DNA of 24,000 nucleotides from Candidatus Woesearchaeota archaeon (GTDB lineage Archaea; Nanobdellota; Nanobdellia; Pacearchaeales; GW2011-AR1): the NCBI GenBank assembly GCA_964554415.1, contig CAZKON010000004.1, positions 1-24,000 of the forward strand, read 5' to 3'. Below, piece after piece: positions 1-24,000 of the stretch (position 1 is the stretch's first letter; the number at the start of each line of letters is the position of its first letter). Under the pieces are notes generated by a model. It was not told the DNA's origin. It saw only the letters and a list, made by a program, of their open reading frames with translations, and searched no databases. Made by a program: the position numbers and the translations under genes.

Positions 1-215
1 CGTCAAGAACTTTCAGTTCTTGAGCGCTGTTGAGAATCAGGTGATTCTCAAAGTCTCCGGCGGTGTCAAGAATCCCAGACTAAAGTTTGGGGCGTGTCAG
101 GTGTTCTTGAGCACTTTCGAGAATCCCAGAAAACGAGAGGATTCTCGAAGTCACAAAACCACAACAAGCCTCGGCTTTCAAGCCGAGGTTAAAAACCCGA
201 AGGGTTTTGTGACAT
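1..215. repeat. Hairpin-cluster element, copy A (left side cut by window edge)
   Basis: Stems read directly: 3-10/16-23 (TCAAGAAC/GTTCTTGA); 31-38/43-50 (TGAGAATC/GATTCTCA); outer 66-72/104-110 enclosing 74-80/85-91 (loop TAAA); 117-126/139-148 (10 bp); 169-175/182-188; 192-198/202-208 (loop GAA). Positions 66-126 align base for base with 17229-17288. The 70-aa ORF 20..232 is read-through of this element. Confidence 0.75.
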
Positions 216-232
216 TTCCTGAAGAATCATGA

Positions 233-1351
233 TCACTCAATCTGGAACCTTAAAATCGCGCCAACACCCTTTGTGAGATTTAAAAACTGCTGTCCCTCTT
301 GGTTTTCTGTTGAGATGAAGAACACGCTTGAGCCGATACGTTCTGCTTCCTGCTCAAGCTCTTGCATCTCTTTTTTTGGGAGTTCCTTTGAGATTAAAAG
401 AATATCCACTGCTCCTCTTTCCAGCGCAAGACGTGTTTTTTCCAAGCCATAAGCCGCCTTATCTCTGTTTTTTCCCAGAGCCTCAAAAAACTTCTGAATA
501 ATCTTTCTTTCTCTGATGAATTCCTGTTGTTCTATGTCTTCATGTGAAGCTTCTACTAGTAGTTTAAGCCCGTGTTCGTCAACATAGCCTATGTCTTTAA
601 CTGCAATGACTTTTTCTTTTAGCTTTGTTACAAGTTCGCTTTGTTCCAAAAACTCCTCTTTTGTTGGGATTGGGCCGCCGACAAGAATACCTTTAAGTTT
701 CGGCATGTCAAAGAATATCTCTTTCATTGCTTCTGCTACACGTTTGAAGAAGTATTTTGCAAGACCTTCTGTGATGCGATGAAAGCGCTGACTTGATTGG
801 CCACCTGCTCTTACTTTGCCAGGCACTCCTGATGTCATGATACGAATTACTTTGATTTGCTTGCCTTCTAATGCTCCGATAGTTGCCTGCTGACGGTCAA
901 TTGTAAGCAGCCCATAGATTTCTGTGACTTCAAGCATTTCTTTCAGAGGTTCTATGACAAATGCTTTATCGCATCTATATGTACGAATGCGCAGGGCTTT
1001 CGGCGGCTCGTATGCCCAAATCTGAACATCTTGCCCACCTTCTTTTTCAGAAACATTGCCACAAAAGATTGCTAAGCCATTGGTAGGTGTTTGTTTGTAT
1101 TCTTTGAGTTTGCGAATAATTGTTTCCAGCGCTGTGACTACGGAAGTTCTTGTTTGTTTTGATTTAATATTTTCCGCTGTTCCTGCTTCAGATGCAATCT
1201 GACTTGAGACTTGGTGGATATTGGTGCCCGCAGGTATAAGTACAGTCACAAGTTCTGTATGAACACCCCGTATACCTTCAAGTAAAGTCACAAGTTCTTC
1301 AAGTTCCTGTCTCTGTTGAGGTGTCATCTCAGGACTAATAACATTCGCCAT
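233..1351 (-). CDS. prf1: Archaeal peptide chain release factor aRF1
   Basis: 372-aa ORF with the NIKS codon-recognition motif (AENIKSKQTR) and the GGQ motif (RAGGQSSQRF). Three-domain eRF1/aRF1 layout. Confidence 0.95.
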   Translation of the reverse strand: MANVISPEMTPQQRQELEELVTLLEGIRGVHTELVTVLIPAGTNIHQVSSQIASEAGTAENIKSKQTRTSVVTALETIIRKLKEYKQTPTNGLAIFCGNVSEKEGGQDVQIWAYEPPKALRIRTYRCDKAFVIEPLKEMLEVTEIYGLLTIDRQQATIGALEGKQIKVIRIMTSGVPGKVRAGGQSSQRFHRITEGLAKYFFKRVAEAMKEIFFDMPKLKGILVGGPIPTKEEFLEQSELVTKLKEKVIAVKDIGYVDEHGLKLLVEASHEDIEQQEFIRERKIIQKFFEALGKNRDKAAYGLEKTRLALERGAVDILLISKELPKKEMQELEQEAERIGSSVFFISTENQEGQQFLNLTKGVGAILRFQIE

Positions 1352-3679: not shown

Positions 3680-3688
3680 GTTATATTT

Positions 3689-3709
3689 TATATAATACGA
3701 TATTATATA
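3689..3709. promoter_or_regulatory. AT-rich inverted repeat overlapping the TATA region upstream of vapB
   Basis: TATATAATA-CGA-TATTATATA: 9-bp arms are exact reverse complements, located 10-30 nt upstream of the vapB ATG (3679). Candidate promoter plus autoregulatory operator. Confidence 0.35.
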
Positions 3710-3786
3710 AATCTTTCGATGGATTTTGCTTTCCGAATAGTGCCTGAAAAGTAAGACTTATCGGACAAAGCTACTCAAACCAGAGC

Positions 3787-3796
3787 ATTTAAATAG
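3787..3796 (+). promoter_or_regulatory. TATA-like box for the nucleotidyltransferase gene
   Basis: ATTTAAATAG centred about 26 nt upstream of the ATG at 3817. Confidence 0.5.
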
Positions 3797-3816
3797 AGTA
3801 TATACTCGTCTATACC

Positions 3817-4791
3817 ATGAAACTCATTAAGCAGGTTGTGGAAATCGGGAACGGCGCGGCAGTGTATGTGCCTAAAGAGTACCTTGGCCAGGTAGTGGCG
3901 CTTATTCTTCCTGAAGGAACTCGAGAAATCCAGCAACGCATTCTTACAGCTCTTGTGAGATATATGCCCAACATTCTTGGGGTATATCTGTACGGAAGCT
4001 ACGCGCGGGATGAGCAGCAGCCAGATTCAGATATTGATATTCTTGTCGTCACTAAAGAGAGAGATGCAACACTTAAAAGGCATCTGAATGATATCGACGC
4101 AAGAGTCCTTCCACTTGATGCAATCAGGAAAGCAATAAGAGAGCATCCTTTATTTATTGTGCCAGTCATTCGGGAAGCAAAAGTGTTATTAAATCCTGCT
4201 CTCTTGGAAGAGTTGCGCACTCTTCCATTCAATCGTGCACAATTTCAATGGCCCCTCAAAGAAGTCGAACGGACGGTAAAGATTATAGAGACTTTTCTTG
4301 CTTTGGATAGCGATACTGCACCCATTGCCCCCACACACCTGTATTCACTCATTCTGAGAATACGCGTCTGCTTCCTGATTGAATGCCTTTTACATAACAA
4401 GGCGTATACTCATAAACGCCTTAAGGAAAATCTGATGAAGCAGGGATTCAGGAGCGAAGCGATTGAGCGTTGGTTTTCAATCTATCGTGCAGTCAGAGAC
4501 AATGAAGAGCCGCGCATGCACATCAAAAAAACGATGCGCCCTCCGCACCTTAAAACCTCGAGAACTGCTGTTCTCGACGGCCGTCAAAAACCGAAGGTTT
4601 TTGAGGGGTGCGGTTTGGGGAGGCGCTCGTTTTTTGGATGCTCGGGGAGCAACTCCACCTTAAAAGGTGGAGTTTTCTGGAGGCTCCCCGACATAACAAA
4701 AGATGAGGTCTTAACTCTTATTTTATTTCTTAAGGCTTCGATAAAAAAACTCAGACATGAAACGAAAAAAACGGCTGGAAAAGGGTATTGA
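3817..4791 (+). CDS. Nucleotidyltransferase-domain (MNT-like) protein with AbrB/SpoVT-like N-terminus, interrupted in frame by a hairpin element
   Basis: Minimal NTase signature LGVYLYGSYARDEQQPDSDIDILVV (G-S ... D-x-D). The N-terminal MKLIKQVVEIGNGAAVYVPKEYLGQVV resembles an AbrB-type swapped hairpin. The helical C-terminal half is interrupted at about aa 241-291 by structured DNA. Confidence 0.75.
   Translation: MKLIKQVVEIGNGAAVYVPKEYLGQVVALILPEGTREIQQRILTALVRYMPNILGVYLYGSYARDEQQPDSDIDILVVTKERDATLKRHLNDIDARVLPLDAIRKAIREHPLFIVPVIREAKVLLNPALLEELRTLPFNRAQFQWPLKEVERTVKIIETFLALDSDTAPIAPTHLYSLILRIRVCFLIECLLHNKAYTHKRLKENLMKQGFRSEAIERWFSIYRAVRDNEEPRMHIKKTMRPPHLKTSRTAVLDGRQKPKVFEGCGLGRRSFFGCSGSNSTLKGGVFWRLPDITKDEVLTLILFLKASIKKLRHETKKTAGKGY
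4536..4691. repeat. Hairpin-cluster element, copy B, inside a CDS
   Basis: Helices 4536-4540/4622-4626 and 4543-4549/4607-4613 enclose hairpins 4558-4565/4570-4577 (loop TGCT) and 4584-4592/4596-4604 (loop GAA). Helix 4642-4650/4683-4691 encloses 4653-4659/4666-4672 (loop TTAAAA). Locally GC-rich relative to its surroundings. Confidence 0.7.
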
Positions 4792-4942
4792 ATCACTTGA
4801 AACGCAAATAGCGATTCATAAAGAAAAGCTAAAAGAGGCAGTTGAAGAAGGGGATGAAGATTTAATACGCTATTACGAGAAGGACATTGAACACTTTGAA
4901 CAGGAGAAGAAGAAAAAAGAAGGGTATTGGGAAAGTGAGTGA
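4757..4942 (+). CDS. Small charged coiled-coil protein (hypothetical)
   Basis: 61-aa ORF, Lys/Glu-rich with heptad-like pattern (LETQIAIHKEKLKEAVEEGDEDLIRYYEKDIEHFEQEKKKK). Overlaps the 3' end of the preceding ORF. No family recognised. Confidence 0.4.
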   Translation: MKRKKRLEKGIESLETQIAIHKEKLKEAVEEGDEDLIRYYEKDIEHFEQEKKKKEGYWESE

Positions 4943-9247: not shown

Positions 9248-9531
9248 AGAGATTTCCTAAGCCTTCGCTACATCAAGATTCTGGCAATCGAATCTTGAGT
9301 GCCGTCAAGGTTTGGAAAACCTTGAGGTCCCCACAGCAAGCTGATGGGGTATTACGCTCGGCTTCTAGACGGAAATCTCTAATTTCAAACTGGCGCAGCA
9401 AGCTGCGGGGTATTACACCCAGTTTGAAATAAACACTTGTTACAGAGAATTAGGATAATTGAGTTGTATTTTGTTCCTAATTCTCTGTCTGGATGATTAG
9501 GAAAACAGGAATCAAATTAACCTAATCATCC
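9248..9531. repeat. Hairpin-cluster region in the valS / AbrB-like divergent intergenic space
   Basis: A perfect 10-bp long-range helix AGAGATTTCC (9248-9257) / GGAAATCTCT (9371-9380) encloses hairpins 9273-9280/9291-9298, 9305-9313/9317-9325 and 9329-9333/9345-9349. It is followed by perfect stems 9382-9393/9419-9430 (12 bp), 9442-9454/9476-9488 (13 bp) and 9491-9501/9521-9531 (11 bp). Confidence 0.7.
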
Positions 9532-11384: not shown

Positions 11385-12429
11385 TAACTACCTCCGCTGA
11401 TAAAAGCTCACAAAATTTTGGAAGCTCGGCACTTTGAATTCGCACACCGACAGCCCTGAGATGCCCTCCACCAGTAGCATTAGTAAGTTTAGGCAGAATA
11501 CAGGTAAGTATGTCGTGGACATTATCGCCGCGGAGAGATATATTTGTAATGCCTGCGTTTGTATATGCCACACATATGACGCAGTCTGAAAAACGATAGA
11601 CTAATTCATTTGATAATTCAGAACTCATGCTGGTATCACCGCCGTATGAAAAAAAGACAAGCGCGCCTTGCTTGCATAAAAGCGCTTGTTGAAGCAATGA
11701 ACTATATCGGGCATACAATCTTGTATATGTATTGCGAAACTGCGCGTTTCCAGGCACGTCAGCTAGCACTTCGCTCGGAAACATGCACTTAATAAGATAT
11801 TGTTGCAGATGCACGACATTTGTAGTAGAATCCTTCAATCCAAAGTTCAACGCCTGCGCTAATTTTCCAATTTCTGTTCTGTAATACGCATCGAATGGTT
11901 TGATTATATTTTTACCCCATAACTCAGGATGTTGTCGTGCAAAGTCTTCTGCAAAGTCTGGCAGGTGATGGTCTGCAATGCATCCCATAACTGCAATCCA
12001 GATGTCTTCTTTACGTCGGCATATCCTCTGCGCCCAATAAGTCACAGGCTCACTGCTTTTTGGCTCCCCATAAATAGGATTATAACTAAAGAAACTCTGC
12101 TCTGCTTCGAAAGACTTGCCCTGTAATTCATGATGGTCAATCCAGATTACAGGAAGTAAAAGTTCTTTTAGCGCCTTCAGAAATTCAGGCTCAAGTATAG
12201 GCTTGTCCAGAATGAAAACAGCGTCTGCCCCAAGTTCGCGCGCTTTCTGTGCGTACGAAACATTTAGCCCAGGATAGCTACGGACAGCAATGCCCCTGCC
12301 TCTTCCCAAAAATCGCGAAAAAATCAAAAAACTGCACAAACCATCAGCATCATTGTCGTAATAAAAAACAGGGTTCTGAGATTTCTCAAGATGTTCTCTG
12401 ATTTCTTTGCACTTTGATTCCGAAAGCAT
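11371..12429 (-). CDS. DHH/DHHA1-family phosphoesterase (archaeal RecJ/Cdc45-like)
   Basis: DHH motifs DNDADGLCS and WIDHHE, plus DHHA1 motif GGGHLRAVG near the C-terminus. Overlaps uppS by 14 nt. Confidence 0.8.
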   Translation of the reverse strand: MLSESKCKEIREHLEKSQNPVFYYDNDADGLCSFLIFSRFLGRGRGIAVRSYPGLNVSYAQKARELGADAVFILDKPILEPEFLKALKELLLPVIWIDHHELQGKSFEAEQSFFSYNPIYGEPKSSEPVTYWAQRICRRKEDIWIAVMGCIADHHLPDFAEDFARQHPELWGKNIIKPFDAYYRTEIGKLAQALNFGLKDSTTNVVHLQQYLIKCMFPSEVLADVPGNAQFRNTYTRLYARYSSLLQQALLCKQGALVFFSYGGDTSMSSELSNELVYRFSDCVICVAYTNAGITNISLRGDNVHDILTCILPKLTNATGGGHLRAVGVRIQSAELPKFCELLSAEVVNENS

Positions 12430-12856: not shown

Positions 12857-12947
12857 GGAGAATTCGGTTGATTATGTTCCACTACATTCGAATTCTCCAG
12901 ACAGAGAATTTGGTACAAAAAGTAACTCAATTAACCAAATTCTCTGT
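12857..12947. repeat. Pair of long-stem hairpins between convergent genes
   Basis: GGAGAATTCG (12857-12866) / CGAATTCTCC (12889-12898): 10 bp, 22-nt loop. ACAGAGAATTTGG (12901-12913) / CCAAATTCTCTGT (12935-12947): 13 bp, 21-nt loop. The second has the same architecture as 9442-9488. Confidence 0.7.
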
Positions 12948-13466
12948 AATTGACTTCTGCACTTCAGAAAAACAAGAAGTTTTGCTGCTCTCATTAACCA
13001 CTAAATTACAGAGCGTTTCATTACGCTCAGAAACAGCAAAACGTTCGTAACATCCATCACGATAAGATGCAGTTTTCACATCAGCACAAAGTTCATTATC
13101 TCTCTTTGCAAATGCCACGTTAGCATAACAGAAATCTTCGCTGCCAGAATCAGCAATCAAAGTGCATGGAGTAAAGTCTCTGGTTTGAATGGCATAGTAC
13201 TGAAAGCATCCATTCCTTTCATTTCCTCGGATATTGTTGCAGATGCGGACATCATGCTCCTGCACAGAAAAATTAAGATAACATAAATATTGTTTTGACT
13301 CGTTGCGCTCGTATTTACATATCGAGGCAGAATTAGAAAAATCAACCAATAGTACAACCATAAATCCAAGAACTAAAACAGCTACTGCAAAAAAAGGTAT
13401 ATTCTCACGCGCGACTTCTCTAAGCGCATGATTCATAATGATTGAACGCAGAAAACCCGCAAACAA
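12927..13466 (-). CDS. Membrane-anchored Cys-rich repeat protein
   Basis: N-terminal TM (IPFFAVAVLVLGFMVVLLV), then about four 26-aa repeats with paired Cys: CNNIRGNERNGCFQYYAIQTRDFTP / CTLIADSGSEDFCYANVAFAKRDNEL / CADVKTASYRDGCYERFAVSERNETL / CNLVVNESSKTSCF. The track start is a TTG and ATG at 13436 is an alternative. Confidence 0.6.
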   Translation of the reverse strand: MFAGFLRSIIMNHALREVARENIPFFAVAVLVLGFMVVLLVDFSNSASICKYERNESKQYLCYLNFSVQEHDVRICNNIRGNERNGCFQYYAIQTRDFTPCTLIADSGSEDFCYANVAFAKRDNELCADVKTASYRDGCYERFAVSERNETLCNLVVNESSKTSCFSEVQKSITENLVN

Positions 13467-17003: not shown

Positions 17004-17227
17004 TATGTATTTAAGCCTTTCGATGATTCAACGATAAACTATGCTAACACTGGTTAAAAATGTCAAGACAATGCCCTTTGGGCATCTAATTGGTTTATTA
17101 ATTGCCTCTGGTTTTTCTAATATTATCAATCATTATTTCTAATGGAAAGCATTATTATTAATTAAAATATGACCTATAAAGCTATCTTCCTCCATAGGAA
17201 ATAAAATGGGGTTAAAGTTTATATTAC

Positions 17228-17710
17228 TTCAAGAACCACCCACTAAAGTGGGTGGCGTGTCGTGGTTCTTGAGCACACTCGAGAATCCTTTATTACTCCC
17301 TGCTTAAGCAGGGAGATTGCATGATGTATTATAGGATTCTCGATGTATCAGATAATGCATTAACCAAAAAGCTTGTGAATCTCCCCGCCCAAGGGTTTGC
17401 CTTCGGCAAATCCGCCTGCTGGCGGAGTGGGGCATCCAAGAAAACCAAGAACCGAAGCGGACTCATATTTGAGATAATTATCTCTTAAATAAAAGAAGAT
17501 GCTTGGGAAGTATAGAAGACTTTAGGGGTTCGTCAAGAACTTCGAGAATATGCTTATTCTCGACAGCTTCAGAAACCTCTTGTTTCTGACAGTGCTCAGA
17601 AATAGAATATTTCTGACATGCTCAAGAATTTGCCAATTCTTGACATCTGCTGATTCTTGAACGCATCCAAGAACCAGAGGTTCTTGGTGTGTCAAAGTCT
17701 TCTATACTAC
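17228..17710. repeat. Hairpin-cluster element, copy C (largest): composite nested hairpins, GC-rich three-hairpin module, and a 14-bp-closed tandem hairpin array
   Basis: 17229-17235/17266-17272 encloses 17236-17243/17248-17255 (loop TAAA). 17279-17288/17334-17343 (10 bp) encloses 17296-17303/17308-17315. Also 17396-17401/17405-17410 and 17411-17416/17421-17426 (loop TGCT). 17510-17523/17694-17707 (14 bp, perfect) encloses hairpins starting at 17542, 17569, 17596, 17622 and 17667. No ORF. Confidence 0.8.
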
Positions 17711-18651: not shown

Positions 18652-18815
18652 TTTCTCATATACTGGAAAAGTAGATAAAAGACCTTTGCAATTGGCATCA
18701 CATTCTTGTTTAGTATAACATGAATTAGATAAATAAACATCACTCTTCTTACATCTATAACATATCTCCTCCTTAAAACAACCTTCACCACTTGTTTCTT
18801 GTTGAGACGGCTGAG

Positions 18816-21689
18816 CTACAGCTGGCGTACCTGACTGAGGAACATCTGCCCCCCCGTCCCACCGCCCCCAAACAATTTCCTGAAGAAGTTAATTATTTTC
18901 TCAAACAACCCTGCATCAACGCACTTCCCGCCCGCGCATACATTGCTCCCGCATTCATAGTTATTCTCACACGTCGCTTCTGCTGCTCTCTGCGCTTTCA
19001 TCGTCCCGCTCAATGCACAGTAATCCCCGCCTGCCCGCGTGCCAAATCCAATGCACTTGCTACTTCCATCGCTACTCGGCAAATTGCATCCGATTGTCGC
19101 GCATGAGTTGCTGCTTCCGCTTCCTCCACCGCTTCCTCCCCCGCCACTGCTTCCTCCGCTGCCAGATGTTCCCCCCGAACTACTGGTCCCGCTATAATAA
19201 ATAAATGCCGTACGCGGTGCACTTATAGAGCCTTTATGCAGAGCGACTATAGGGACATCACCACCAGTTGAACTGATAATATTATCTGTATTTGCAGGGT
19301 CAGAATAAGAAGATTGCCTCGTATAAATTTTGTTCACATCAACATAAGAAGAACTCCCGCTTCTTTGTTGACTCAACGTAATAATCGCCTCTTTGCCTGC
19401 CTCAAAATTCCCAGATACATCTTGTCCATGAACAACTAAGTGAAAATATTCAGAAAAATAAAAACGCGAAAGTGAGTTACCAATCGCACCTTGTTCAGTT
19501 GTACTACCATAAAGAGAATATCTTAAAGATTCATCTAATGTCGGAAGATAAATAGCAAGACCTTCCCGCGTGGCAAGCATATTAAACTTTATACGATTAT
19601 CTTGTGCGCTCACATAGACACTTTTCGTTCCCGAATTTATGTAAACCTCATCAATTTTCAAACTTACTAAATTATCAAAATTCACGATATCTCCTGCTTT
19701 CTTATCCCCCTTTGATGTCCATGCTCCATTGCTGTAATATTCAACATTAGTCTTGTTAGCAAACTCTTCTGCAGTATAGGAATTAAATCTAACAAGATAC
19801 GAAACAGGGTTACGAGAGTCATTAAGAGTCACAACCATATATCTATCGCCCCCAGTATAATTGTATAACACCCTACTCGTCATTGAACTTGTGACAAGGC
19901 GATTGCTAGGACTTTTACCTATACCAAGAAATGAACCAGAGGCATTAGTATACAATAAAGGCATCGTGACTTCTCCGCTTTTGATTGTTGTCTTTAATTG
20001 TAAGACATAACTTCCATCATTTGTGATAGTCGTAGTTTCTTTAAGGCTATTTGCGAGTTTATTAAGTTTCTCAAACTCTATCGCACTAGAACCTTCGCTT
20101 GTTGAATATGCAACACTAACACCTTCAGATGCACACGCACTGTCTTCAATAATGATATCTCCATCTGAAGGGTTGCAATTGACTGTTCGAAGAGTGCAAG
20201 TATTATCCTGAAGGGAAGACGAACCAGTACATGAGATTCCAAGAATTAAACATTTTCTTTTCTCAACTTTTCCTTCAGTTTTGGAAGAAATAAACGTGCG
20301 CATTTGAAGAAGCTGTAAATTAGTGGACTTATAGTTAATAGAAGTGTACAAATTACTTTCACTTTCTGATTTCACATCTTTTATAGAAAGCGCGCGCTCT
20401 TTACATGCTGTTTGAGAAAGCTTTTGGATTGCAGGCGCGTCACAAGATTCAGGAAGAAAAACAAGAGAAACCCTGCCCCAACCAAGTCCCAGTGGAGAAT
20501 TCTCAATGCCTTCAACAATTACTTTAATATTAGTCTCCGGGATTTTAAAGGATTCATATGCTCGAAGAGAGGCAGTATACTCCTTCTTATCATTCCCAAC
20601 TTTAGAAAAGTAAATCGCGGCACTTTCTCCGAAAGGTTGGGCATATACTGAAAAAGAAGTACCCATAATTCTCAAGTCAATTATCCCATCTTCAATTGTG
20701 ATTCGTGTGACATCGCACGATGCTGTTCCGCTTCCTCCGCTCGCCACGCATGCGCCATCAACACATCCATTTAAACAAGGATATTTCTCAAGTGCAGCAG
20801 TATCGGCAGAAGTGCAGAAATATTCAAAAACAACCGCACCTTCATCACTAACGCTGCAATAATCGGTCGCTTTACCGCCGTCTTTATTAACAAGTGTCCC
20901 TTTCACAAAGTAATTCTTTCCATTAGGAAATCCATCTCTTTCATCAGTATCTTTTGTGTCATCATCAGTGCACTGCGCTGTTCCGCTTCCTCCGCCTTGG
21001 TTCGGCGTTGTTGTCATTCCAGCAAGCTTCTTCTTTCCTTCACGGTATAAATCTTTCACAGCTTGCTCTGACAACGCATCTGCATACACGCGAACATCGT
21101 ACGCTCTGCCCTCAAAGTATCTATTGTCATAAGGCGCAGGCAAACCACAATCATGCCCGATGCATAAGTCACCTGTTGTACCGAGCGTGCCGGAAGCAGC
21201 AACGCTCGCTTCAAGCACTCCGCCACGATACAATGAAATAGTCGCGCCATCCCAAGTGCCAACCCAATGATCCCATGTGTTCAATGGAAGGCGATTCGCT
21301 CCAGAAGAAACCGAGTACCATGCATCATCCAAGAACACCCAGAATTTCACGCTCCCGTCTGTTTCCGCGCTTAAAATATAAGAGTTTCTCTTTGACACCC
21401 AGCTTCCAGTAATCTCATTGTTCCCTGTCCTGAGTGCCTTGGTATTAAACCATCCTCCGACAGTAACTGCTTTCTTCGATGTTTTTATATTGCTTGCAGA
21501 TGTAGTCCCATATGCACCGGAGCCATCGTAAGTTCGCACATCAGGAACTATAATCTGTGCAGAAGTTGAATAATCATCAATCACTTTTCCTGTGACTGTA
21601 AAAGGCCAAAACGCAGAAACAACACTGACACTCAAGACGAGCAATAACGCAAAGACCAGTGCAATAAAAACACTTCTTCCCTCTTTCAT
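18816..21689 (-). CDS. Giant secreted/surface protein: signal anchor, LamG (concanavalin-A-like lectin) domain, Cys-rich modules, Gly/Ser linker
   Basis: N-terminal SVFIALVFALLLVLSVSVVSA. LamG-like core ITGSWVSKRNSYILSAETDGSVKFWVFLDDAWYSV...WDHWVGTWDG...ISLYRGGV...GDLCIGHD...FEGRAYDVRVY. Cys-spaced modules (CTDDDTKD...DYC...EYFC...CLNGCVDGAC; CENNYECGSNVCAGGKC). Poly-G/S linker. Confidence 0.85.
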   Translation of the reverse strand: MKEGRSVFIALVFALLLVLSVSVVSAFWPFTVTGKVIDDYSTSAQIIVPDVRTYDGSGAYGTTSASNIKTSKKAVTVGGWFNTKALRTGNNEITGSWVSKRNSYILSAETDGSVKFWVFLDDAWYSVSSGANRLPLNTWDHWVGTWDGATISLYRGGVLEASVAASGTLGTTGDLCIGHDCGLPAPYDNRYFEGRAYDVRVYADALSEQAVKDLYREGKKKLAGMTTTPNQGGGSGTAQCTDDDTKDTDERDGFPNGKNYFVKGTLVNKDGGKATDYCSVSDEGAVVFEYFCTSADTAALEKYPCLNGCVDGACVASGGSGTASCDVTRITIEDGIIDLRIMGTSFSVYAQPFGESAAIYFSKVGNDKKEYTASLRAYESFKIPETNIKVIVEGIENSPLGLGWGRVSLVFLPESCDAPAIQKLSQTACKERALSIKDVKSESESNLYTSINYKSTNLQLLQMRTFISSKTEGKVEKRKCLILGISCTGSSSLQDNTCTLRTVNCNPSDGDIIIEDSACASEGVSVAYSTSEGSSAIEFEKLNKLANSLKETTTITNDGSYVLQLKTTIKSGEVTMPLLYTNASGSFLGIGKSPSNRLVTSSMTSRVLYNYTGGDRYMVVTLNDSRNPVSYLVRFNSYTAEEFANKTNVEYYSNGAWTSKGDKKAGDIVNFDNLVSLKIDEVYINSGTKSVYVSAQDNRIKFNMLATREGLAIYLPTLDESLRYSLYGSTTEQGAIGNSLSRFYFSEYFHLVVHGQDVSGNFEAGKEAIITLSQQRSGSSSYVDVNKIYTRQSSYSDPANTDNIISSTGGDVPIVALHKGSISAPRTAFIYYSGTSSSGGTSGSGGSSGGGGSGGGSGSSNSCATIGCNLPSSDGSSKCIGFGTRAGGDYCALSGTMKAQRAAEATCENNYECGSNVCAGGKCVDAGLFEKIINFFRKLFGGGGTGGQMFLSQVRQL

Positions 21690-21695
21690 TGTGTC

Positions 21696-21709
21696 AGAGA
21701 GAGAGAGAG
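21696..21709. repeat. (AG)7 / (CT)7 dinucleotide microsatellite between TATA box and start codon
   Basis: AGAGAGAGAGAGAG read directly. It lies between the ATG at 21689 and the TATA-like box at 21714-21726. Confidence 0.85.
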
Positions 21710-21713
21710 CGTC

Positions 21714-21726
21714 TATTTAAATATTT
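21714..21726 (-). promoter_or_regulatory. TATA-like box for the 957-aa LamG protein gene
   Basis: Minus-sense AAATATTTAAATA centred about 31 nt upstream of the ATG at 21689. Confidence 0.45.
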
Positions 21727-21747
21727 CTATGATGCATCGCCAAAAAA

Positions 21748-24000
21748 TCAAAACCCTGTCGATACACCGCCAGGCTGCAGCGTTGATGAGTGCGGCTCTG
21801 GTCTGTAAAATTCATTATTCTTGTTTGTGTTCTGCTGCTTCACGACATAAACAATTGCAACAATTACAAAGATAATGAATATAATTAATGCGATGATAAC
21901 AACAATCATTGTCTTAGAATCAAGCGCCGCAAGACCTTTTTTGTCAATTCCTGTAGAATTTGTAGTATTAATAAGTCTCGTCACGCCAGGAGCAACGTTA
22001 GTGCCTCCGCCAGGCCCACCACCGCCTCCACCTGGAGCAGTTTCTTCAGTTATTGTACGCAGCATGATAAGAGGTTTGCCATTTGTAACCTGAAGGAAAG
22101 TGATATTAAAATCAGGACGGCTGTTTGCATTCAAGTCAAGTGATTGTGTTTCACCTTGTGAAAGAGTAAAGGTAATAGGCAGGTTCTTGATTGTTATTGT
22201 TAATCTGTTAGCGCTCAAACTGACAATTGTCATGTTATAATTAGTTGTTCCTACTCGGAACAAGAGAGTCTCACCTACGCTAAGTGTTGTATTATACCCC
22301 CGCGCCAGTGCTGTCGGCTGAATCACTAAAGGCGCTGGCTTTGGCTGCGGCTCATCGCTACCTACAAGCGTTATGGTGTTGTTCTTGCTAGCTGAATCAT
22401 TTTGATAATTCCCGAGTCCATTGTTGAAGAAAGTCATCCGAAGCAGAGAATTATCAGAAGAACTTGCAAAGTAAGCACCATAATTTGCGTTTGACCTTAA
22501 AGCAGTACGATCCATAGTATTAAAGTTACTGCGCTCAAACCACACACCGCTTCCAAGACTCTGCTCAATTGCTCCCCTGTTAATAAAAGAATTCTGTGTA
22601 TCATTGAGATGCAATCCAACTTCTTCGCTTTGAGATATTGAAACACTATCAAGCACCGCTCCCCGCGTATTATGAATTAATATTCCTTTCGTGAACCCTT
22701 CAACCTTGATATTCTTTAGTGTGACATTCTTCTTATCGCGGACAGAAATACCTGTTGTTATTAATGATGACGAAGCAAGCGGATCAGCTGAAGTCGTAGT
22801 GACTCTAACAAAATTTCCTTGCCCATCAAGAGAAACATTGTCTGAAGCAATCGTCAAACATGTTTTATCGGAGCTGAGTGACTGCGTAAGCTGGTAGATT
22901 CCTGGCTTATCAATTGTACCGCACGCACTCACACCCGTTGGAGACACAGGAGTAGTTGCTGCAAGCGCAAGTTGTGTTTTGAACAATGAGTCTGCTTCTG
23001 CTGCCGAAAGCCCATAATCAAAGAATTGTAGTTCATCAATATGCCCATTAAAGAATCGCTTTTCAGCTCCGCCTGTAAAGTCACGACCGATGTACAAATC
23101 TCCAATTGCTCCCATGGTCCCTCCTGAAACAGGAAGACTTTTTATTTCGCTTCCATCTAAATATAAAACAAGATGGCTTCCATTATAAACTGCACTCCAA
23201 TACTGCCACACTCCAGTTTTAACGCTTCCTACAGGAGCTCTTACAGACACCCATTCTTTATCCAAAAATGCCCAGAAATCAACGGAACCATCTTTATTCG
23301 GGCCAAAAACATAAGCTTTTCTCTTTGACACCCAGCTTCCAGTGATATCTCCTGCAGTCAAATCATTTGTCTTGAACCATCCAGAAATACTAAAGGCTCC
23401 ATAAAATGAGAGCACTGCCGCGTTAGGTACATATAACTCGTCATCACTGCCATCAAATGAAGCTGCCTTTCCTACCTTGCCGCTACTGCTTGCTACACCG
23501 TTTTTTGCACTTCCTCCAATGTTACCGAGTATATCTTTGACTGCTCCTGGCTCTGCACTAATAATTTCGTCAAAACTCCAATGCGCCACTCTGCCCAGAC
23601 CACCGGCACTCAATAGTTCCCTGCGCTGCTTTTCATAAATCGCTTTAATCCCATCTGCGTTAGTAACCTTATAAGTAATATTCATTTCGTCAAGCATACC
23701 ATTCAAATAATGAGTGCGGACATTCCCATTAAAAACATCTTTACCCATGCCAAGTGTAAGTCCTGAAATTGAGGCATCTGGTCCATCAGAAACGCTTGCC
23801 GAAGCAATCTGTTTTCCGTTTATATAAATCGCCTTGACTGTTCCACCATTTCCTCCAGAAACCAATGCGACATGGGTCCAATTTCCATAATAAGGACTAT
23901 AGTCCACACTGACTCTTCCTTTAGAGTCGCTTGGCTCCCCATAATCCCAATACAATTTATTATTTGCCCATAGATATGCGCCAAAACGATTAGCATCACC
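21748..24000 (-). CDS. Giant surface protein (5' end outside window): two LamG domains, right-handed beta-helix (PbH1-like) repeats, Gly-rich linker, C-terminal TM anchor
   Basis: The frame is open to the window edge (the track start at 23955 is a TTG). LamG cores: WTHVALV...IYINGK...LDEMNI and ITGSWVSKRKAYVFGPNKDGSVDFWAFLDKEWVSV...LYLDGS...GDLYIGRD...FNGHIDELQFF. Beta-helix-like repeats: NVTLKNIKVEGFTKGILIHNTRGAVLDSVSISQSEEVGLHLNDTQNSFINRGAIEQS. GGGGGGPGGG, then TM MIVVIIALIIFIIFVIVAIVYVV. Confidence 0.85.
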   Translation of the reverse strand, partial: GDANRFGAYLWANNKLYWDYGEPSDSKGRVSVDYSPYYGNWTHVALVSGGNGGTVKAIYINGKQIASASVSDGPDASISGLTLGMGKDVFNGNVRTHYLNGMLDEMNITYKVTNADGIKAIYEKQRRELLSAGGLGRVAHWSFDEIISAEPGAVKDILGNIGGSAKNGVASSSGKVGKAASFDGSDDELYVPNAAVLSFYGAFSISGWFKTNDLTAGDITGSWVSKRKAYVFGPNKDGSVDFWAFLDKEWVSVRAPVGSVKTGVWQYWSAVYNGSHLVLYLDGSEIKSLPVSGGTMGAIGDLYIGRDFTGGAEKRFFNGHIDELQFFDYGLSAAEADSLFKTQLALAATTPVSPTGVSACGTIDKPGIYQLTQSLSSDKTCLTIASDNVSLDGQGNFVRVTTTSADPLASSSLITTGISVRDKKNVTLKNIKVEGFTKGILIHNTRGAVLDSVSISQSEEVGLHLNDTQNSFINRGAIEQSLGSGVWFERSNFNTMDRTALRSNANYGAYFASSSDNSLLRMTFFNNGLGNYQNDSASKNNTITLVGSDEPQPKPAPLVIQPTALARGYNTTLSVGETLLFRVGTTNYNMTIVSLSANRLTITIKNLPITFTLSQGETQSLDLNANSRPDFNITFLQVTNGKPLIMLRTITEETAPGGGGGGPGGGTNVAPGVTRLINTTNSTGIDKKGLAALDSKTMIVVIIALIIFIIFVIVAIVYVVKQQNTNKNNEFYRPEPHSSTLQPGGVSTGF

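Follow-up and report, generated by a model that had tools for sequence, protein, structure and literature searches.

A dispersed two-hairpin repeat inserted in frame in a nucleotidyltransferase gene of a DPANN archaeon

The G+C clusters of yeast mitochondria (including the in-frame VAR1 cluster), the double-hairpin elements of Allomyces mtDNA and the byp elements of Magnusiomyces are GC-rich hairpins in AT-rich genomes that are mostly intergenic, occasionally coding, polymorphic for presence and absence, and spread without a classical transposase. In enterobacteria, the enterobacterial repetitive intergenic consensus sequences, or intergenic repeat units (ERIC/IRU), are imperfect palindromes of ~127 nt with a conserved core, whose longer variants carry extra sequence at fixed internal sites. 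Rickettsia palindromic elements (RPEs) and other intragenic MITEs (miniature transposable elements with inverted repeats; intragenic ERIC, large BOX and QMITE1) are small hairpin repeats found in frame within unrelated genes (PMC10969869). Here we describe a hairpin repeat that lies as a 57-codon insert in a nucleotidyltransferase (NTase) gene of a Candidatus Woesearchaeota archaeon, in a stretch of 24,000 nt (assembly GCA_964554415.1, contig CAZKON010000004.1, positions 1 to 24,000; hereafter the window). This copy is probably a tolerated, translated in-frame insertion of a dispersed structured repeat, similar to an RPE.

The segment is one copy of a dispersed non-coding repeat made of two hairpin domains (D1 and D2, with a core of ~120 nt), belonging to a family that occurs in a narrow groundwater lineage of DPANN archaea (Woesearchaeota/Pacearchaeota-like). 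In the proposed explanation, two small hairpins would already have been nested in the D1 loop before insertion, hence the length of 171 nt. The element would then have entered the NTase gene, in sense orientation, in the region coding for the loop that links the last two helices, and the product would retain its normal fold with an additional disordered surface loop of 57 residues.

Like RPEs and intragenic MITEs, the element is a dispersed hairpin repeat of ~100-170 nt, occurs in several copies at unrelated loci, and in the window lies in frame and free of stops at a predicted loop site, where it adds a fold-compatible peptide that orthologs do not have. The differences are equally clear. RPEs are very often intragenic and have a conserved peptide, whereas the present family is almost always intergenic, its host is a DPANN archaeon, and the only genes found to carry it are the NTase gene of the window and one helicase-like open reading frame (ORF). 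Moreover, the family is seldom seen in public data: the insert peptide is found in just 4 ORFs among 1.84 billion representative proteins, three of them small and spurious-looking. The reading frame used in the window is interrupted by stops in 5/8 family copies; the family is thus not selected to be coding, and a family-wide coding constraint was ruled out. Finally, neither the terminal inverted repeats nor the target-site duplications flanking each copy that characterize classical MITEs were found at the copies of this element.

The insert and its host gene

The host protein matches Pfam families PF18765, PF01909 and PF09853 and has an ANT(4')/KNTase-like two-domain fold, with 6un8 and 1kny as top Foldseek matches. 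About 130 NTase homologs were found, labelled mainly as Pacearchaeota, Woesearchaeota or Nanoarchaeota, and each is ~265 aa long compared with 324 aa in the window. The nearest ortholog, on contig L001, shares 74% amino-acid identity, and no near-identical allele, with or without the insert, was found in the databases searched. Alignment of the protein with 12 orthologs shows a single clean gap of 57 residues. In the DNA alignment with the nearest ortholog, exactly 57 codons (171 nt) are missing from the L001 gene, which reads ...CGTGTAC|AACTGACAAAAGAGGAG... where the window reads ...CGCATGC[171 nt]...ACAAAAGATGAGG... On these alignments, the insertion is real, lineage-specific and exactly 57 codons long. 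The first-pass annotation, made from the letters of the window, had described an ORF reading through a self-complementary segment with an offset of 171 nt. All 324 codons are indeed open and encode the quoted peptide, the figure of 171 nt is exact, and a homologous peptide is present in none of the orthologs.

Placement of the junctions is free by a few nucleotides, with ACAT/AT present at both ends; the interval 4522-4692 measures exactly 171 nt and begins at codon phase 0, and the match to the covariance model described below covers 4519-4700 (138 bits). The sense, phase-0 placement is the sole stop-free one among the six combinations of orientation and phase, the other five containing 1-2 stops each, and ~7% of shuffled versions of the insert are free of stops. 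Since 171 nt is divisible by three and the insertion took the only stop-free placement, the gene stays open and can be read straight through. The open frame of the insert is best explained by survivorship.

Repeats are typical places of mis-assembly, and one contig that carries a further copy (L068) ends 18 nt after it, so that a chimeric join at a repeat in this metagenome-assembled genome had to be considered. However, the sequences on both sides belong to the same gene, in order and in frame, no codon that aligns with the orthologs is lost, and an exact, stop-free insert of 57 codons would very rarely arise from a chimera. We regard an assembly artefact as barely credible.

The NTase gene is followed by an overlapping ORF that starts 65 nt downstream of the insert. 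This partner ORF is intact in the window, and the pair is kept in all relatives. It encodes a coiled-coil protein of 60-61 aa, with copies at L001 8863-9048, L090 8557-8739, L094 9272-9457 and L096 10764-10949, and is not a HEPN domain.

A model of the protein was obtained with AlphaFold2 (60 homologs). The predicted local distance difference test score (pLDDT) is at least 90 for 214 residues, and the host fold is above 90 outside the insert. Residues 231-290, located between helices 213-227 and 295-321, have a pLDDT below 50 and are unstructured in the model. The insert is predicted to form a disordered surface loop joining the last two helices, a position that the host fold would accommodate.

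Structure and copies of the repeat family

The segment 4519-4707 has a minimum free energy (MFE) of -95.1 kcal/mol, compared with -55.7 ± 4.6 kcal/mol for dinucleotide-preserving shuffles (n = 200; z = -8.65; 0/200 as stable), and the opposite strand folds about as well. D1 and D2 are each self-closed, and the two ends of the element are unpaired with each other. D1 comprises a basal stem (AAAAAAACG/CGTTTTTT), a middle stem (GCGCC(CT)/(GG)GAGGCGC, with a TTTG bulge) and an upper stem (CCGCACC/GGTGCGG). D2 comprises a lower stem ((C)TCGGGGAGC/GCTCCCCGA), an upper stem (CTCCACC/GGTGGAG) with a TTAAAA loop, and a conserved 3' internal loop, TTTTCTGGAG. The hairpins proposed from the letters, A and B in the D1 loop (Table 1) and (A)CTCCACC/TTAAAA/GGTGGAG(T) at 4652-4673, are all exact, and so are the hairpins at 192-208, 17236-17255 and 17542-17563 with which they had been compared.

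Searches for related DNA brought the number of copies of the element to eight in seven sources, the window included, all on related DPANN metagenome contigs. One copy was found by scanning species-representative genomes for the insert peptide (L002, a Woesearchaeota genome), three were the true copies among 53 matches in a metagenome scan with an 18-mer common to two copies (L052, L053 and L068), and one was reached through the protein search (L089). A covariance model built from five copies then found the copy on L001, the second copy on L053 and the sequence at 108-217 (minus strand) of the window. The homologous copies score 55-157 bits. Six of the seven copies outside the window are intergenic and one lies inside another gene. 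ORF-level traces of the element also occur in P0121, P0122 and P0126. P0122, one of the small spurious-looking ORFs, comes from an NCBI contig of 15,477 bp; it matches the two nested hairpins and the D1 3' arm with 100% identity, and the 5' half of D2 precedes the nested hairpins in place of the D1 5' arm. This order of modules suggests another, recombined copy, which may lie in the same genome.

All copies share the same layout. In D1, a basal stem that pairs an A-run with a T-run is combined with a GCGCC/GGCGC stem, a TTTG bulge and, at the apex, a 7-bp stem closed by a TTRAAA loop. D2 adjoins D1 directly; its lower stem reads TCGRGRAGC/GCTYCCCGA, its upper stem is likewise closed by a TTRAAA loop, and its conserved 3' internal loop is (G)TTTYCTG. 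Across seven copies, 94.7% of the pair cells are standard, and sliding the partner columns by 1-3 positions lowers pairing to 38-45%. Changes on both sides of a pair are seen in 10/38 element pairs, a number that 0/500 column shuffles reached, and the structure of the element is therefore under selection. The G.U cells outnumber the A.C cells 11 to 4, which leans towards the NTase-sense strand but is not decisive.

The copies differ by whole small hairpins, which have an 8-bp stem of the TCARGRAY type and a loop of 4-7 nt. L068, L002 and L001 carry the bare core. The D1 apical loop holds one hairpin in L089 (TCGAGGAC-TGCT-GTCCTTGA, the positional homolog of hairpin A) and that hairpin plus a second one in the window; both are missing from this loop in the L052 and L053 copies. 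Between D1 and D2, two or more hairpins are found in L052, both L053 copies and L089. This modularity is reminiscent of ERIC/IRU, in that extra hairpins are placed at the D1 loop or at the D1-D2 junction, whereas the present family has unrelated sequences, an archaeal host and a two-domain architecture.

Rfam 15 gave no match at the gathering threshold in the window, and for the element and the L002 copy only noise of 10-16 bits at E up to 10; a known RNA family or ribozyme was thus ruled out, and no tRNA or transfer-messenger RNA was found. Viral, phage or plasmid origin was rejected as well, scans of viral contigs giving chance matches only and BLAST against phages and plasmids being negative. 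Readings of D1 and D2 as H/ACA, C/D box or K-turn RNAs were set aside by eye, with no formal test: the 5' side of the pocket has only 2 nt, the ACA is separated from the upper stem by 18-19 nt instead of 14-16, and there is no tandem G.A pair. Likewise by inspection only, the stems of the small hairpins depart from the RYYYAAC/GTTRRRY consensus of integron attC sites. A literature search returned no report of such elements in DPANN archaea, and the repeat family appears to be undescribed.

The structure might instead act as a cis-acting RNA signal co-opted by the operon, either as a processing or stability site or as a pause tuning the 61-aa partner, with the peptide as a by-product. Such a role would fit the compensatory changes that maintain the structure across genomes, the 25-nt blocks of the basal D1 stem that are identical between genomes whose NTase proteins are only 50-74% identical, and the distance of 65 nt to the partner start. 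Several copies also lie directly 3' of genes in sense orientation, such as L052 immediately after a stop codon and 108-217(-) of the window after the eRF1 gene. Against this, ~130 orthologous operons are without the element, and the contexts of intergenic copies are divergent, convergent or tandem and lack a constant neighbour. We therefore consider a co-opted signal quite improbable.

Removal at the RNA level by archaeal splicing, one form of an outcome first offered for this segment, is not supported. The segment would then be an intervening sequence cut from the mRNA by a splicing endonuclease and RtcB, or by another hairpin nuclease/ligase, to give a normal protein of 267 aa. Its length is divisible by three, the element is compact with a high degree of structure, the ratio of G.U to A.C pairs leans to a structure of the sense strand, and DPANN archaea have splicing endonucleases of relaxed specificity. 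Archaeal bulge-helix-bulge (BHB) introns, such as those in cbf5 of Crenarchaeota, are likewise short, structured, frame-preserving intervening sequences in ORFs, but the motif that defines them (two 3-nt bulges and a 4-bp helix) is missing at the junctions in the window. The best score for excisions of 165-177 nt was 8, where the null distribution has its mean at 9.2 and its 95th percentile at 12, and the best motif overall would remove conserved residues and shift the frame. These geometric scans with a null distribution rule out a BHB intron. Removal by any nuclease is further opposed by the self-closed domains with their unpaired element ends, by the mostly intergenic location of the family, where splicing has no role, and by the failure to match any Rfam ribozyme or intron at E up to 10. 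We judge it very improbable.

Table 1. Positions of the insert, its parts, neighbouring features of the window and copies of the element on other contigs.
Feature	Coordinates	Strand	Basis and remarks
Diverged element relative	108-217	-	Covariance model, 24.8 bits, E about 2e-4 (weak); just 3' of eRF1 gene, sense
Intergenic locus upstream of MazE	3680-3816	+	L001 has an element at the homologous place; covariance model, flank comparison
Host gene, 324 aa	3817-4791	+	ORF list; DUF2080-like N-terminus, Pol-beta/MNT-type nucleotidyltransferase, C-terminal helical bundle
Inserted element	4520-4692	+	171 nt beyond orthologs; protein and DNA alignments, covariance model, phase/stop analysis
Domain D1, long imperfect hairpin	4522-4640	+	MFE fold; consensus fold and pair counts, 5 and 7 copies
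Nested insertion in D1 apical loop, 51 nt	4556-4606	+	Copy comparison; 52-nt insert in covariance-model alignment
Small hairpin A, TCGAGAAC-TGCT-GTTCTCGA, TCARGRAY stem family	4558-4577	+	
Small hairpin B, TCAAAAACC-GAA-GGTTTTTGA	4584-4604	+	Weak resemblance to 192-208, E = 3.3 only
Domain D2	4641-4691	+	MFE fold, consensus fold, pair counts
3' tail ACATAA	4691-4696	+	Alignments and flank listing; CGACAT invariant in every complete copy
Host sequence CAAAAGATGAG	4697-4707	+	Also in element-free orthologs (L001: CAAAAGAGGAG)
Downstream 61-aa ORF overlapping NTase 3' end	4757-4942	+	ORF list; gene tables of L001, L090-L097
Element copy L002	1292-1422		Intergenic
Element copy L001 (contig of nearest NTase ortholog)	12134-12264	-	Intergenic
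Element copy L052	850-1031		Intergenic; two small hairpins between D1 and D2
Element copy L053a	261-440		Intergenic; two small hairpins between D1 and D2
Element copy L053b	3845-4040		Covariance model; 3.5 kb from L053a, same contig
Element copy L089	6206 onward		
Element copy L068			Inside helicase-like ORF

Small hairpins in the intergenic regions

The window contains 31 perfect hairpins compared with 8.5 expected, and they are clustered. The stem word TCRAGAAY occurs 26 times (5.4 expected; 0/100 shuffles reach 26), with concentrations at 1-150, 4558-4577 and 17229-17660. Arrays of TCARGRAY hairpins with a period of ~27 nt were observed at 17542-17643 and 1-51 of the window, and also in L002, L052, L053 and L089. 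Over five loci, 24/26 hairpins of this family are intergenic and the other two are those inside the NTase gene. The in-gene copy is thus an exception, since all 24 other small hairpins are intergenic. No TCARGRAY hairpins were found in L001 or in more distant Pacearchaeota loci, and the other Pacearchaeota NTase loci (L090-L097) have neither the element nor hairpins of the family.

The modules of the insert had been proposed to match those of the intergenic clusters. When the segment was compared by BLAST with the remainder of the window, nothing was significant, the top match to a cluster having E = 3.3, so that a relation through primary sequence similarity was not retained. The relation stands on the motif statistics, the shared architecture and the weak covariance-model match at 108-217(-). 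This last sequence contains a D1-like hairpin (GTCACAAAACC...GGTTTTGTGAC) followed by a D2-like hairpin (TCGAGAATCC-tctcGTTTTCTG-GGATTCTCGA), with a GTTTTCTGG loop motif common to the element. As far as these sequence comparisons go, the proposed match appears right in substance.

The hairpin clusters are similar to repetitive extragenic palindromic sequences and bacterial interspersed mosaic elements (REP/BIME), as palindromic hairpins of ~21 nt in tandem intergenic clusters, often 3' of genes, whose stems vary while complementarity is kept. A GTAG or CGTC head is described for REP superfamilies (PMC3733652); by inspection, the hairpins of the window are flanked as GC-TCARGRAY...RTYCYTGA-CA and have no such head. 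In addition, no RAYT transposase was seen among the ORFs of the window, the hairpins here nest in loops that belong to a larger element, and one set is intragenic.

Clusters of perfect hairpins, many with TCARGRAY stems, fill most of the window's larger intergenic regions (1-232, 9270-9530, 12880-12950 and 17220-17700). In the tandem array at 17542-17643, neighbouring stems differ and complementarity is kept. Double-hairpin units at 61-150(+) and 17229-17345(+) are homologous to each other. Each consists of a first hairpin (TCAAGAAYC, an upper hairpin with a TAAA loop, cgtgtc and GTTCTTGA), then GCAC, then a second hairpin (TCGAGAATCC ... GGATTCTCGA), and their upper stems are compensated (CCCAGAC/GTTTGGGG in one, CCACCCAC/GTGGGTGG in the other). 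A 59-nt 'inverted repeat' with 85% identity, at 9440-9498 and 12891-12949, corresponds to a hairpin element that has a CAGAGAAT stem and is present twice. Stems of the CAGAGAAT type were also observed in hairpins between D1 and D2 of L053 (3845-4040) and L089. This pair was rejected as transposon brackets, as the genes between its halves encode UPP synthase and a DHH phosphoesterase. Finally, two very large secreted-type proteins of 957 and 735 aa are encoded at 18816-23955(-), with concanavalin-like lectin (Laminin_G_3) and beta-helix domains; the gene of the first includes a GC-rich region (GC 0.53-0.58 at 18800-19200) in which short TTCCGCTTCCTCC repeats occur.

Movement of the element and fate of the insert

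The segment had been described as bracketed by an imperfect direct repeat resembling a target duplication. The repeat is present, as ACATCAAAAAAACGATG at 4520-4536 and ACATAACAAAAGATG at 4691-4705, but its interpretation does not stand. What had been taken for the left copy, (AC)ATCAAAAAAACGATG, belongs to the element as its own 5' terminus and is conserved in six other copies at unrelated loci: it opens L001, L002, L052 and L053a, is found from CAAAAAAACG onward in L089 and occurs as a compensated variant in L053b. Within the right copy, ACAT forms the element's 3' end, CGACAT being invariant across complete copies, and the remainder, AACAAAAGATG, is host coding sequence that reads ACAAAAGAGG in element-free orthologs (GACAAAAGAGG in the L001 DNA alignment). 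The flanks of eight copies together with the empty site of the ortholog thus rule out a target-site duplication. A duplication of 2 nt (AT) at most would be compatible with the sequences, in which every copy reads AT|C...CGAC|AT and the AT is inseparable from the element; the other copies have no flanking repeat beyond AT.

There are no terminal inverted repeats, as the ends ATCAAAAAAACG... and ...CCCCGACAT are not inverted copies of each other and the inverted repeats of the element are internal, namely the arms of D1 and D2. The 5' flanks (GCAC, CACC, AGAA, GAGA, GTTT and AGAA) share no target motif, and no transposase was found among the ORFs of the window. In these respects the element resembles the palindrome-associated transposable elements (PATEs) of the IS200/IS605 group, which have neither terminal inverted repeats nor target duplications, carry hairpins near their ends and are possibly recognised as a folded strand. 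It differs from them in that no conserved target of 4-5 nt precedes it and no TnpA or TnpB is encoded in the window or the loci examined.

Nevertheless, the element family has moved, as the first-pass annotation had claimed. Copies are found at unrelated intergenic sites and in a second gene, and presence or absence of the element was observed at three orthologous sites, namely the NTase gene, the locus upstream of MazE and the helicase-like gene. At the MazE-upstream locus, L001 has an element between the shared flanks AAATCTTTC and AGCATTTAAA, where the window has ~60 nt of other sequence; in the window this locus is ~840 nt from the in-gene copy, on the same strand. In L001 the promoter-like block AGCATTTAAA stands before a 212-aa gene, in the window before the NTase gene (3680-3816 compared with L001 12095-12350(-)); this marks a rearrangement breakpoint right beside the L001 copy. 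The third site is on L068 (19-489(-)), where the element lies in the helicase-like ORF just before the Walker A motif, directly after ...LPLPDKLSG. Its element-free homolog on L098 (247-681) continues VCHLATGTGKS. The L068 element is read in the frame used in the window, and a TAG comes directly after it.

The 3' flank ATAACAAA(A)G is common to the window copy and the intergenic L001 copy. As these loci are not homologous, this points to microhomology between the 3' end of the element and the host site. Since a donor-like locus lies nearby, the insertion may have been a local event for which a neighbouring copy served as template by way of microhomology at the 3' junction. The selected structure, the identical 25-nt D1 blocks and the lack of terminal repeats suggest that a mobilising machinery recognises the folded single strand rather than terminal inverted repeats.

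The L068 copy, which appears to break the helicase-like gene before its Walker A motif, raises the question of whether the NTase gene has been silently inactivated, the insert being in frame by luck and the protein non-functional or the ribosome stalled, as in a young pseudogene. Such an outcome would be consistent with an insertion that is unique to the window sequence, the nearest ortholog being 74% identical, and with a structure of -95 kcal/mol within a coding region. However, the 33 codons 3' of the insert are free of frameshifts and stops, and the C-terminal helix that follows is conserved relative to L001, with proportions of non-synonymous (pN) and synonymous (pS) differences of 0.20 and 0.42 over 32 codons, values that cover the whole divergence from L001 and not the time since insertion. 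The insert also falls in a predicted inter-helix loop, the overlapping partner ORF is intact, and the only non-disruptive configuration among six is the one observed, which suggests selective filtering. Inactivation is in our view unlikely.

Tolerated insertion, which the first-pass annotation had listed among its options, is thus the outcome we favour, on account of the open frame and the predicted loop site; that the insert is translated and tolerated is what we infer. Several points weigh against this preferred explanation. Translation through a structure of -95 kcal/mol is assumed. The pN/pS comparison is dated by the divergence from L001 and not by the insertion. The identity of the 25-nt blocks fits a functional RNA or a protein-binding site equally well as a selfish element. 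With neither terminal inverted repeats, nor a clear target duplication, a conserved target or a transposase in the window, any particular mechanism of mobility is unsupported. Among the mitochondrial repeats, the resemblance lies in the hairpin or double-hairpin form, the mostly intergenic and occasionally coding location, and the presence/absence differences. Those elements are organellar, however, and byp is bypassed by the ribosome and often contains stops, whereas bypassing is not needed here because the window insert is stop-free and in frame.

More speculatively, and with greater doubt, the D1-D2 element and the 21-nt TCARGRAY hairpins could together be undescribed structure-defined mobile modules of DPANN archaea, spreading by a mechanism that recognises a folded DNA or RNA single strand, with neither terminal inverted repeats nor target duplications. 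The small hairpins would enter loops and junctions of larger copies, and the whole element would be able to enter coding sequence. In a stronger version, the in-gene copy may be excised from the mRNA by a hairpin-specific nuclease/ligase unrelated to BHB splicing. If the modules are indeed structure-defined, the small hairpins would be among the smallest self-propagating units known.

The present locus adds a hairpin-repeat family that is new, as is the host clade in which it occurs, and of which one copy is clearly in frame within a gene. Its structural covariation is unusually distinct, and its hairpins are modular and nested. Elements of this kind disrupt assemblies, swell gene calls through spurious small ORFs and can give rise to new protein loops. 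The activity that mobilises them, if identified, could be a new structure-guided system for DNA or RNA insertion. If the insert is read as we propose, the RPE phenomenon would not be limited to obligate intracellular bacteria and would also occur in the reduced genomes of DPANN archaea, where the repeat would be carried as extra protein sequence.

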